IMG/VR virus record: IMGVR_UViG_3300013125_000003
Location: 67,446 to 131,445 of that record
Reading direction: 5' to 3' (one strand)
Length of the DNA stretch: 64,000 nt
Source: a virus
The notes below the pieces were generated by a model that saw only the letters and a program-made list of their open reading frames with translations, had not been told where the DNA came from and did not search any database. This document shows positions 58,116 to 64,000 of the stretch, one piece after another. Both the position numbers and the translations under genes were made by a program. Numbering within the stretch: the first letter of the stretch is position 1; each line of letters starts with the position of its first letter.

Positions 58116-61100
58116 ATGTCGGAAATTACAGGCTCAGTTAAAGTTACTGGTATAATCACTCCAACCGATACTACTGATGTTTATGCAGTAACTGATCCTA
58201 TATACGGTCGAGAAGGTTTGCGAAACGTTTCTAGCGAAGCTGAAATGTTAGCCATTCCTCCTGACAGAAGAAGATTGGGCATGGTCGTTGGTGTAGGAAT
58301 AAGTGGCACTAGCGGAACATATTACAACTTAATAAACGAACCCGGCACACCAACTACTTTAATTTCAGACTGGTCAATATTCAACAGCGGAGGAGGTTCC
58401 GGTTCTTCTGGTACAGCCGGTTCATCAGGAACTTCTGGATCTTCTGGTTCAAGCGGTACGTCAGGCGAATCAGGTTCTTCTGGTTCAAGTGGTACGTCAG
58501 GTTCTTCTGGTTCCTCAGGCGAAGCCGGCTCTTCTGGCTCTAGTGGATCCTCTGGCACGTCAGGTTCATCAGGATCCAGTGGATCTTCTGGTACCTCCGG
58601 AGAATCAGGTTCTTCTGGTTCGAGCGGTACTTCTGGTTCATCAGGTTCATCCGGCACTTCTGGAGAATCTGGCAGTTCCGGTTCTTCTGGTACATCAGGT
58701 GAATCTGGTAGTTCGGGTTCGTCTGGAACTTCTGGCGACTCAGGTTCCAGTGGTTCGTCAGGTTCGTCAGGTTCTAGTGGATCTGCCGGCTCATCCGGTT
58801 CTTCCGGTACCTCAGGTTCTAGTGGTTCAAGCGGATCTTCTGGTTCATCTGGAACTTCTGGAGAATCCGGAAGTTCAGGTACCTCCGGCGAATCAGGATC
58901 AAGTGGTTCTTCTGGAACTTCTGGAGAATCAGGATCAAGTGGTTCTTCTGGATCATCAGGTTCTTCCGGTTCGTCCGGATCATCTGGCACCTCAGGCGAA
59001 ACAGGTTCTTCAGGGTCATCGGGTACTTCAGGAGAAGCTGGGTCAAGCGGTTCTTCTGGTTCATCTGGAACTAGTGGATCGTCCGGTTCGTCTGGAGAAT
59101 CAGGTTCGTCAGGAACTAGCGGATCTTCCGGTTCTTCAGGAACTTCAGGAAATTCAGGTTCATCTGGTTCTTCTGGTTCTTCTGGTAGTTCAGGAACTTC
59201 AGGAAATTCAGGTTCATCTGGTTCTTCTGGTACTTCAGGAGAATCTGGCAGCTCAGGTTCAAGTGGTTCTTCTGGCACATCAGGTAGTTCAGGTTCATCA
59301 GGTTCAAGCGGCACATCAGGTAGTTCTGGTTCTTCTGGCTCATCTGGTTCTTCTGGTACTTCAGGAGAATCTGGCACATCAGGTTCTTCAGGTTCCTCTG
59401 GCACATCAGGCTCTTCAGGTTCTTCTGGCTCATCCGGTTCTTCAGGTTCCTCTGGCACATCAGGTTCTTCAGGTTCTTCTGGCTCATCCGGTTCTTCAGG
59501 TTCTTCTGGCACATCAGGTAGTTCTGGTTCATCTGGTTCAAGCGGATCAAGCGGCACATCAGGTAGTTCTGGTTCTTCTGGCTCATCTGGTTCTTCTGGA
59601 ACTTCAGGTTCTTCTGGTTCAAGCGGATCTTCTGGCACATCAGGTAGTTCTGGTTCATCTGGTTCAAGCGGATCAAGCGGCACATCAGGTTCCTCAGGTA
59701 GTTCAGGAACTTCAGGTAGTTCTGGTTCTTCTGGTTCAAGCGGATCAAGCGGATCATCAGGTTCTTCAGGTTCAAGCGGATCATCGGGCTCGTCCGGTAC
59801 ATCAGGTTCATCAGGAACATCAGGTTCATCAGGCTCAAGCGGCACATCGGGTTCTTCAGGAACCAACGGTACATCAGGCTCAAGCGGTACATCAGGTTCA
59901 TCGGGCTCAAGCGGATCGTCCGGTAGTTCAGGATCAAGTGGATCTTCTGGCTCTGCTGGGTCATCCGGCACGTCAGGTAGCTCAGGTTCGTCTGGTTCAA
60001 GCGGATCATCAGGTTCTTCTGGAACATCTGGAAGTTCAGGTTCATCAGGTACTTCCGGTTCTTCAGGAAGCGCTGGTTCAAGCGGAACATCTGGTTCTAG
60101 CGGTTCTTCTGGAACCTCTGGAAGTTCAGGTTCATCAGGTACGTCAGGTTCAAGTGGTTCATCAGGGTCATCCGGTAATTCAGGATCAAGCGGATCAAGC
60201 GGATCTTCTGGTACATCAGGTTCTTCCGGCACGTCTGGTTCTTCGGGATCAAGTGGATCAAGCGGAACATCAGGTTCTTCTGGTTCATCAGGAACATCAG
60301 GTTCTTCAGGTTCAAGTGGAACATCGGGCTCTTCCGGTACATCAGGTTCATCGGGATCTTCCGGCACGTCAGGTGAAGCAGGATCATCTGGGTCTTCGGG
60401 CACTTCAGGTTCTTCAGGCTCAAGTGGATCGTCCGGTTCTGCTGGTTCATCCGGAACCTCAGGCTCTTCTGGTTCAAGCGGATCTTCAGGTAGTTCAGGA
60501 TCATCCGGAACCTCAGGTTCTTCTGGAACTTCAGGTTCTTCTGGTTCAAGCGGATCTTCCGGTAGTTCAGGTTCTTCAGGTTCATCTGGTTCTTCTGGAA
60601 CTTCAGGTTCTTCAGGCTCGTCCGGTAAAGCCGGCTCAAGTGGTTCTTCTGGCTCTGCTGGGTCATCCGGCACATCAGGTTCTTCTGGATCAAGCGGAAC
60701 ATCAGGATCAGCCGGTTCTAGCGGAACCTCAGGATCATCAGGTTCTAGCGGAACCTCAGGTTCTTCCGGCTCAGCTGGTTCATCAGGTACCTCAGGTTCT
60801 TCTGGATCAAGCGGAACATCAGGATCATCAGGTTCTAGTGGAACCTCAGGTTCTTCTGGATCAAGTGGAGCAGCTGGCTCATCAGGTTCAAGCGGAACTT
60901 CTGGTTCAAGTGGATCATCTGGTTCATCTGGCGCTTCTGGCAGCTCAGGTTCTTCTGGTTCTTCTGGTTCTTCAGGTACATCAGGTTCAAGCGGATCTTC
61001 TGGCTCGTCAGGATCATCCGGTTCAAGCGGAACATCAGGTTCGTCAGGTTCCTCTGGATCAAGCGGAGCAGCTGGGTCTTCCGGCTCTTCAGGAACCAGT

Positions 61101-64000: not shown

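Follow-up and report, generated by a model that had tools for sequence, protein, structure and literature searches.

A giant phage gene with an uninterrupted, proline-free array of 623 Gly-X-Y triplets as a candidate for a collagen-like virion fibre

What kind of protein is encoded by a viral gene in which glycine stands at every third position for 1869 residues and proline never occurs? The question is raised by the last 64 kb of a 131,445-nt IMG/VR virus record (IMGVR_UViG_3300013125_000003, positions 67,446 to 131,445), a stretch of 64,000 nt referred to here as the window. A giant open reading frame (ORF) lies at its right-hand end (58116-63998, + strand), begins with ATG and runs for 1961 codons with no stop before the window end; it comprises a 92-residue head followed by an array of Gly-X-Y triplets. 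CheckV puts the record, classed as linear, at 51% completeness. Because the window edge is the contig end and the array is not continued at the contig start, the gene is cut by an assembly break. We read its product, with a probability of about one half, as a trimeric, collagen-like and probably O-glycosylated virion fibre, at least 0.5 µm long, used for host capture by a large contractile-tailed freshwater phage.

Throughout the array (58392..64000, + strand), glycine occupies each third residue from residue 93 (nt 58392) up to the final complete codon, giving 623 of 623 uninterrupted triplets (GSS 418, GTS 142, others 63) without a break, a turn motif or a proline. Position X holds mainly Ser (427) or Thr (150), followed by Glu (14), Ala (11), Lys (9), Asn (5), Val and Gln (2 each) and Gly, Asp and Leu (1 each), and position Y is ~95% Ser (589), with Ala (27), Thr and Asp (3 each) and Asn (1) making up the rest. 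Proline is found at 0 of the 1246 X and Y positions. The two positions follow different rules, with Thr (150 versus 3), Glu (14 versus 0) and Lys (9 versus 0) placed at X and not at Y. Non-Ser X residues are spaced three triplets apart (GSS-GSS-GTS) in 87 cases versus 28.8 expected, and this 9-residue spacing was the only super-period detected. At the DNA level, all six Ser codons are in use (TCA 390, TCT 300, TCC 110, AGC 85, AGT 68 and TCG 63), the GG of the Gly codon is retained in 623 of 623 cases with a free third base (entropy 1.56 bits), and in-register 81-nt stretches share a mean identity of only 62%. Because GG is invariant, the wobble base varies and identity between stretches is this low, the array is best regarded as diverged and under strong selection, rather than as a fresh or artefactual expansion of a single unit. 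These counts agree with the original prediction, which had described at least 622 triplets reaching the window edge, mostly Ser or Thr at X, mostly Ser at Y, no Pro, and a mixture of Ser codons implying selection on the protein. Taken from sequence, the invariant Gly, the X/Y asymmetry, the three-triplet super-period and the recurrence of the same X/Y rule in relatives suggest that the array is structured rather than linker-like. Pfam family PF01391 scored 52.3 bits for residues 1-195 (cut-off 27.2) and exceeded its cut-off at 43 places in the giant ORF frame, a match that owes its strength to Gly periodicity.

The head (residues 1-92; 58116..58391, + strand) had been described as unique. Instead, it proved to be a conserved and common N-terminal module of phage fibres, with the motifs PTDTxDxYAVxDPxYG, RRRxGMxVxV and SDWxxF. 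A phmmer search of 1.84 billion representatives returned 881 clusters at E<=1e-3 (best E 4e-44), and nearly all of the 150 matches listed sit at residues 1-95 of proteins 80-3051 residues long. Residues P16, D21, D27, G31, R36, R51, R52, G55 and M56 are invariant in the head alignment. Relatives occupy fibre-like gene clusters in LR756502 (locus L001), in an IMG/VR contig (L002) and in G001 (L124), the closest relative of the present phage. An AlphaFold2 (AF2) model of the head had a mean predicted local distance difference test score (pLDDT) of 77.9 and matched N-terminal parts of phage tailspikes at Z 3.8, a value that, like those of all its fold matches, lies below a trustworthy level. Foldseek comparison of the model with the PDB gave nothing at E<=0.001, the head profile matched 0 PDB sequences at E<=1, and no PHROG family was found for it. 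A metagenome scan with the head returned 10 loci, none of them a close relative with a complete gene; in two of these loci (L106 and L107) the head is followed by other repeats and then by 100-117 triplets.

The original prediction implied a singular gene. Sequence comparison indicates, to the contrary, that it belongs with many others to a phage fibre class that is widespread and, it seems, undescribed. When IMG/VR was scanned with 300 residues of the array, at least 88 stretches among 597 candidates were confirmed; the best 80, which were kept, fall into 79 loci whose longest Gly-X-Y frames are nearly all Pro-free and Ser/Thr-rich. A corresponding scan of 185,579 species genomes confirmed at least three loci among 600 candidates. 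Complete ORFs include one with 797 triplets and a longest run of 641 (L007), one of 2448 residues with 684 triplets (L010) and, in a 270-kb phage, one of 3733 residues with 1015 triplets. L018 holds 765 triplets in an ORF that is open at its 5' end in that locus, and L121 has at least 1035 before its contig ends. Relatives share an X/Y grammar, with Thr, Ile, Val, Asn and Lys at X and Ser, with minor Asn, Asp and Ala, at Y. Of the C-terminal flanks of the arrays, 18 belong to one family and 10 to another, and Peptidase_S74 was confirmed in both tested members (L014 and L043) of the ten-member family. For the C-terminal domains of L007, L010, L018, L050 and L054, neither Pfam nor PHROGs returned a family, and a protein atlas search with the L010 domain returned unnamed viral clusters only. 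In L010, the 2448-residue gene is followed by a third giant gene (12269-16387, + strand), which begins with about eight repeats of the type 'LIRLNSNGTEDTAFY', beta-propeller-like by eye, and continues as a long GSN/GSS/GTS run off the locus edge. Array length also varies among near-identical phages from different metagenomes (L144-L150; IMG/VR contigs that range from 13 to 271 kb and include four of 270-271 kb), in which two arrays of one giant gene count 354/387, 353/388 or 317/424 triplets within the flank, differences that represent either repeat-length polymorphism or assembly collapse.

How such genes are arranged can be seen in G001, whose record of 252,618 nt has a completeness of 93%. 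It encodes, in order, a protein with poly-Thr linkers, a glycosyltransferase 70% identical to that of the window, a 299-residue protein, a 726-residue fibre and two giant proteins of 2514 and 2810 residues. The 726-residue fibre bears a head of the window type (73% identical). The 2514-residue giant, which is complete, has 554 triplets in three arrays with globular inserts between them and a 322-residue C-terminal domain. Its 2810-residue neighbour, also complete, contains 747 triplets, of which the longest run comprises 573 (X Ser 413 and Thr 286; Y Ser 700), and ends in Peptidase_S74 (PF13884, E 3.8e-14), a family that Pfam names 'Chaperone of endosialidase'. S74 domains fold trimeric phage fibres and are then cleaved off, and they are a mark of such fibres. 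Orthology between the window array and those of G001 was considered and rejected, as the ~65-66% nucleotide identity occurs at many offsets and reflects composition. Since its N-terminal module is of the fibre type, it lies in a fibre gene cluster and giant relatives of it are complete, the ORF can be taken as a real giant phage gene, as originally proposed.

Two genes upstream of the giant ORF lies the neighbouring glycosyltransferase that the original prediction had mentioned, a 318-residue protein with a GT8-like GT-A fold assigned by fold match (56181..57137, + strand). Its AF2 model (pLDDT 93.7) matched WbbM, UGGT, LgtC, XXYLT1 and glycogenin in Foldseek at E 1e-6 to 1e-4 (probability 1.00 at E 1e-6), and aligned with glycogenin over 223/249 residues at Z 14.9 and a root-mean-square deviation of 3.5 Å. 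H105-D106-(S107)-D108 and H266-N267-A268-G269 are invariant in 26 sequences of the enzyme; H105-D106-x-D108 and H266-x-x-G269 would correspond to the GT8 DxD and HxxG motifs. Pfam gave no match to this ORF, glycosyltransferase profiles included, even at E<=10, and it belongs to PHROG 4417, to which PHROG assigns no function; we found 2573 relatives. No other glycosyltransferase was found among window ORFs of at least 150 residues. Two GT2-family genes (PF00535; C1:54972-55673 and 56872-58329, - strand; E 1.1e-9 and 7.3e-17) lie ~67 kb upstream, outside the window, and with the GT8-like gene they bring the phage to at least three glycosyltransferase-like genes. Among 80 IMG/VR loci carrying the GT8-like gene, 30 also carry Pro-free arrays of at least 20 triplets, and all arrays listed are on the strand of the enzyme gene and downstream of it. 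The array-bearing loci are 29 of the 36 best-scoring plus one other; of the seven best-scoring loci lacking an array, four have less than 600 nt of downstream sequence. Modelling and synteny together make the enzyme a candidate O-glycosyltransferase for Ser/Thr-rich fibre proteins.

Under our reading, the head would serve as the docking and oligomerisation module common to many phage fibre proteins, and the 623 or more Gly-Ser/Thr-Ser triplets would form the shaft, most likely as a homotrimeric collagen-type triple helix. Three chains in such a helix are suggested by the strict Gly register and the X/Y asymmetry, and O-glycosylation of Ser and Thr by the GT8-like enzyme is suggested by synteny. 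A shaft of 1869 residues would measure at least 0.54 µm at 0.29 nm per residue, the rise of the collagen helix given in two sources (PMC8968730, PMC3368898). The hydroxyl-rich surface would keep the shaft soluble and may help to stabilise it, probably together with the O-glycans added by the enzyme. A distal host-binding domain, perhaps with an S74-type folding chaperone, would by analogy with relatives lie beyond the contig end. Speculatively, the whole would be a long and semi-flexible line for capture, giving the phage wider reach for hosts in dilute lake water. Of the original prediction of a collagen-like whisker longer than 500 nm that needs glycosylation to fold, the very long thin fibre is thus retained as the best reading, on the strength of the fibre module, the gene cluster and the relatives, whereas the triple helix and its glycosylation are what we infer.

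Several observations weigh against this reading. The array has 27 charged residues among its 1246 X and Y positions (E 14, K 9, D 4) and no Pro, and its matches in the PDB reflect Gly periodicity only. Ser has reportedly a low triple-helix propensity in the host-guest data of Persikov et al. 2000; to our knowledge, no triple helix of such make-up has been solved, and we know of no triple-helix stability rule that favours Gly-Ser-Ser. None of the known stabilising make-ups (Pro/Hyp, many charged residues, or Gln/Thr at Y as in bacterial collagens) is seen in the array; in bacterial collagens, according to a review (PMC8968730), Pro takes up ~19-31% of X and Thr 32-48% of Y. The S74 domain is known from relatives (the 2810-residue protein of G001, L014 and L043), and the C-terminus of the window gene lies beyond the contig end. 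The best matches of the head model, the trimerisation domains of collagens XV and XVIII, are weak (Z 5.0 and 4.5), and direct fusion of head and array appears unusual within the head family because 0 of 163 head-family proteins compared carry 10 or more Gly-X-Y triplets. As for the enzyme, 43 of the 44 lower-scoring loci lack an array, and of the 79 array loci, only 5 have the gene within 10 kb. Its link with arrays is confined to one related phage group with many near-identical members, so that the counts are not independent. The target of the enzyme could instead be the poly-Thr linkers of neighbouring proteins.

Because triple-helix rules do not favour Gly-Ser-Ser, a glycosylated single-chain tether keeps a substantial minority share of the probability, and we hold it tentatively as the leading alternative. 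The gene would still encode a fibre, with the array forming a highly hydrated single-chain tether, either disordered or, as in mucins and extensins, an extended polyproline II (PPII)-like rod stiffened by dense O-glycans; it would connect the head with a distal domain or surround the virion as a brush. This alternative draws on a composition that is that of the classic flexible Gly/Ser linker, Pro-free and poor in charges, on the GT8-like enzyme two genes upstream, on adjoining proteins with mucin-like poly-Thr linkers, and on a weak protein-atlas lead, at rank 12, to a cluster with 10% HPAT-type peptide O-glycosyltransferases. A linker or mucin, however, needs no Gly at exactly every third residue, let alone a register held over 623 triplets here and 573-727 in relatives with distinct rules for X and Y, and a relative with the same type of array ends in the trimer-folding S74 chaperone. 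Far less probable is a body in which the array folds back into a bundle of short PPII helices that binds ice or a surface, modelled on springtail antifreeze proteins and polyglycine-II sandwich adhesins, folds that are known to exist. In its favour, the array has Gly-X-X periodicity with small residues. The arrays of relatives sit between globular domains, as fibre shafts do, and 1869 residues without a break, turn motif or Pro show no periodicity beyond 9 residues that would mark strand lengths. The PPII-type fibre offered as the other option in the original prediction therefore fits poorly as a compact antifreeze-type bundle, while an extended single chain keeps its place as a possible form.

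Two further explanations concern the gene model and not the fold. We consider it improbable that the gene is real and the length, piece order or last part of its array is partly an artefact of short-read metagenome assembly. Logan contigs of four runs (X1, X2, X5 and X6, the last two not flagged as a possible source of the record) were placed on 56000-64000. Pieces 56000-59164, 59804-60545, 60854-61373, 62117-62633 and 62846-63788 recur with zero differences in X1, X2 and mostly X5, the array portion of the first piece being 58392-59164, and X5 (58163-59164) and X6 (58332-58586) bridge the head-array junction without differences. Contig pieces stop at internal repeated 31-mers, which cover 1736 of the 5609 nt of the array, and this breakage leaves the path between pieces without confirmation from other assemblies; array stretches lacking long Logan pieces give no evidence either way. 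Runs with a small share of the region (from sludge and wastewater, and the one RNA run) do not enter into this comparison. The unique parts and the head-array junction are reproducible, and the order and number of array pieces rest on the original assembly. An artefact would also be in keeping with the many joints between distant array places that occur in single contigs, with the differing array lengths of the near-identical 270-kb contigs (354/387 versus 317/424 triplets), and with a contig that stops in perfect 81-nt repeats. These terminal repeats (63759..64000, + strand; Tandem Repeats Finder 63792-63961 and 63873-64000) are 100% identical over 2.1 copies, with repeated 61-mers spanning 63759-63967. 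Against an artefact, the divergence of the DNA units (mean identity 62%) is not a product of repeat expansion, and a genome that is 93% complete holds whole relatives at least as large. Still less credible, and close to negligible, is that the real gene is the antisense frame (58322-64000, - strand), which is open for 1892 codons and would encode a Pro-Glu/Asp-rich repeat protein. Both frames have the same wobble positions, and codon periodicity is therefore no guide to which is real. Translated, the antisense frame would give Pro followed by two residues from Glu, Asp, Leu and Val, swinging between acidic and hydrophobic at the sites where TCN or AGY codons maintain Ser on the + strand; it is opposite in orientation to the whole gene block; and it stops inside the conserved head, whose 881 related clusters are in the + frame. 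As antisense residues swing at Ser codons and the antisense frame ends within the head, the + frame is judged to be the gene.

Some observations on the terminal repeats stand apart from these alternatives. Summed word depth over 63743-64000 was ~6,500 to 26,000 in X1, X2 and X5 and 372 in X6, compared with ~33, 26, 6 and 2 (X1, X2, X5 and X6) just upstream of the array, where summed depth is not to be equated with copy number. The repeat words are common to far more abundant sequence, whether from other phages or from additional copies. In X2 and X5, contigs fit the array up to 59117 and 63783 and then continue with 255 letters of unlike sequence, as would be seen if array words also occur in other genes of these lakes or if alternative joins exist.

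Comparison with described systems places the gene in a known kind, the collagen-like phage fibres, with giant length and a Pro-free, Ser-dominated make-up as its new features. Collagen-like stretches in phage fibres have reportedly been known since 1998 (Smith et al., 'Bacteriophage collagen'). Fibres and spikes with S74 chaperones, such as endosialidases and the T5 L-shaped fibre, are trimers that cleave off the chaperone and whose shafts are triple beta-helices or coiled coils; relatives with GSS/GTS arrays likewise end in PF13884, and it is the Pro-free array, present in G001-type relatives, that known S74 shafts lack. BclA, of the Bacillus exosporium nap, is a Thr-rich, O-glycosylated collagen-like filament with glycosyltransferase genes nearby, and has fewer than ~80 repeats, which are of the GPT type, X being Pro and Y Thr. 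The window array resembles it weakly in sequence (chain 1wck_A, E 6.4e-5) and, unlike it, has Thr at X (150 versus 3 at Y) and no Pro. Mimivirus, with a eukaryotic host, combines collagen-like surface fibrils with virus-encoded sugar-adding enzymes, hydroxylysine-linked glucose and Pro-containing arrays; both viruses thus pair a collagen-like fibre with a viral sugar-adding enzyme, which in the window has a GT8-like fold. The springtail (snow flea) antifreeze protein is a compact PPII bundle of fewer than ~160 residues with turns, Gly at every third residue and small side chains, in contrast to 1869 unbroken residues encoded within a fibre gene cluster. Among collagen-like tail fibres of phages and prophages (EPclA/B and P-SSM2 orf028), Gly-X-Y arrays lie, as here, between non-collagen N- and C-terminal domains. 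EPclA of an Escherichia coli O157 prophage forms a trimeric triple helix with a melting temperature of 42 C and a length of ~30 nm for 111 residues (PMC3368898), and in Prochlorococcus phage P-SSM2 Gly-X-Y with Pro, Ser or Thr makes up 49% of orf028 (PMC1079782). Known phage collagens are short (tens of triplets to ~100 in EPclA) and depend on Pro at X and on charged residues; the window array, with 623 or more triplets, no Pro, ~2% charged residues and Ser at 95% of Y, is unlike them, and Pfam found no PfN, Pf2 or PfC match, placing the window head and flanks in other families. Two further sources mention 'triple collagen repeats' in structural operons of pelagimyophages (PMC7029224) and collagen repeat proteins among the viral matches of landfill viromes (PMC12607003). 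In a literature search that did not cover subscription journals or supplements, we found no description of Pro-free, Ser-dominated arrays of hundreds of triplets or of a link to a GT8-like enzyme.

The remaining genes of the + strand block provide context for the giant ORF. Directly upstream of it lies a gene for a 300-residue protein (57196..58098, + strand) that opens with the start motif MSHKLQIKQVDLS..FLVIDxDGNVYW and is 40% identical over 263 residues to the product of L001 10325-11968 (E 8e-52) and 27% identical to that of L002 39-1151. The gene upstream of the head-bearing gene is accordingly conserved as well (57196-58098 versus L001). A KxxIKQVDLS...FLVIDxxGN motif starts the gene right after the glycosyltransferase gene in 30 of 77 loci, often leading straight into a Gly-X-Y array; the 300-residue protein has the same start motif as these collagen-like fibre proteins of relatives, followed by a non-collagen body. 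A related-locus search of viral contigs with this protein returned none. Two ORFs of 449 and 654 residues (52818..56141, + strand) are kept in the same order upstream of the glycosyltransferase homologue in L011, with tblastn identities of 63% over 438 residues and 45% over 414 residues, respectively; neither has a Pfam or PHROG family. Further upstream, a 980-residue structural protein (47380..50322, + strand) contains a short, Pro-containing Gly-X-Y run at about residues 35-63 ('GDKGDKGDK...GPRGPRG'; weak collagen match at C1:114930-115013) and a long mucin-like poly-Thr linker at about residues 743-812, both of which are possible further targets of the glycosyltransferase. In G001, the gene directly upstream of that for the enzyme (L124 7135-9969, + strand) encodes a strongly mucin-like 944-residue protein with many poly-Thr linkers of the (T)5-6-A-A-P type between small domains. 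A 697-residue protein (50378..52471, + strand) has a T4 neck-protein-like stretch (PHROG 679, 'head closure Hc2', E 5.3e-8; Pfam T4_neck-protein E 5.8e-5, 23 bits and thus below the cut-off of 25), which suggests that the + strand block lies among virion genes.

The record as a whole encodes a tail sheath, a T4 neck-like protein, GroEL, UvsX, a DnaB-type helicase and a family B polymerase. The nearest sheaths, at 28-33% identity, are those of huge uncultured phages (LR7565xx), Flavobacterium phage MaF61, Tenacibaculum phage PTm1 and Lak phages. The virus is accordingly a phage with a contractile tail, related both to huge uncultured phages and to those infecting Bacteroidota; since the nearest sheaths include those of Flavobacterium and Tenacibaculum phages, its host is putatively placed within the Bacteroidota. 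Sequencing runs with a high share of the region are labelled as lake water metagenomes, and the whole genome is probably that of a large freshwater phage of ~250-270 kb. Positions 50000-58400 matched none of 50,697 phage records by megablast. With tblastn, 300 residues of the array likewise found nothing in these records, an outcome explained by the low-complexity filter and therefore uninformative about cultured phages. Searches for PF01391 were negative in Tenacibaculum phage PTm1, Flavobacterium phage MaF61 and LR756500, and LR756502 has only shorter Gly-X-Y arrays, some of which include Pro. Elsewhere, the window encodes on its - strand a GroEL-type chaperonin (27011-28621; PHROG 5725, E 1.3e-149) and a nucleotide-metabolism set of dCMP deaminase, thymidylate synthase and dUTPase with a SET-domain protein (545-1887, 12279-12758 and 3794-4288). 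No tRNA was found in the 64 kb, and promoter-like and terminator-like sites were no more frequent than in shuffled sequence.

Dozens of uncultured phage contigs thus carry arrays of 500-1000 or more triplets that lack Pro, obey a strict grammar of their own, with Thr, Ile, Val, Glu or Lys confined to X and Ser, Asn, Asp or Ala at Y, and stand beside a conserved glycosyltransferase gene. Such arrays break short-read assemblies, and the genes are therefore under-counted in protein databases; the present contig itself ends in one. A bolder proposal, which we regard as rather unlikely, is that these phages have arrived at a third solution to collagen stability, in which Pro-free triple helices of the type (Gly-Ser-Ser, Gly-Ser-Ser, Gly-Thr-Ser)n, 0.5 to ~1 µm in length, would be maintained by hydroxyl and hydration networks and by O-glycans from a GT8-like phage enzyme dedicated to them, with folding that starts from an S74-type C-terminal chaperone. 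If true, they would be the longest virus fibres known, serving as capture lines whose length changes fast through gain and loss of repeats. Should no triple helix form, the strict Gly register would point to another ordered form not yet known. Should triple helices form, the sequence rules for collagen folding would be wider than thought, and a Pro-free, hydroxylase-free scaffold for biomaterials would be at hand. Phages would moreover possess fibres several times the length of their tails, with a bearing on how hosts are found in dilute water.

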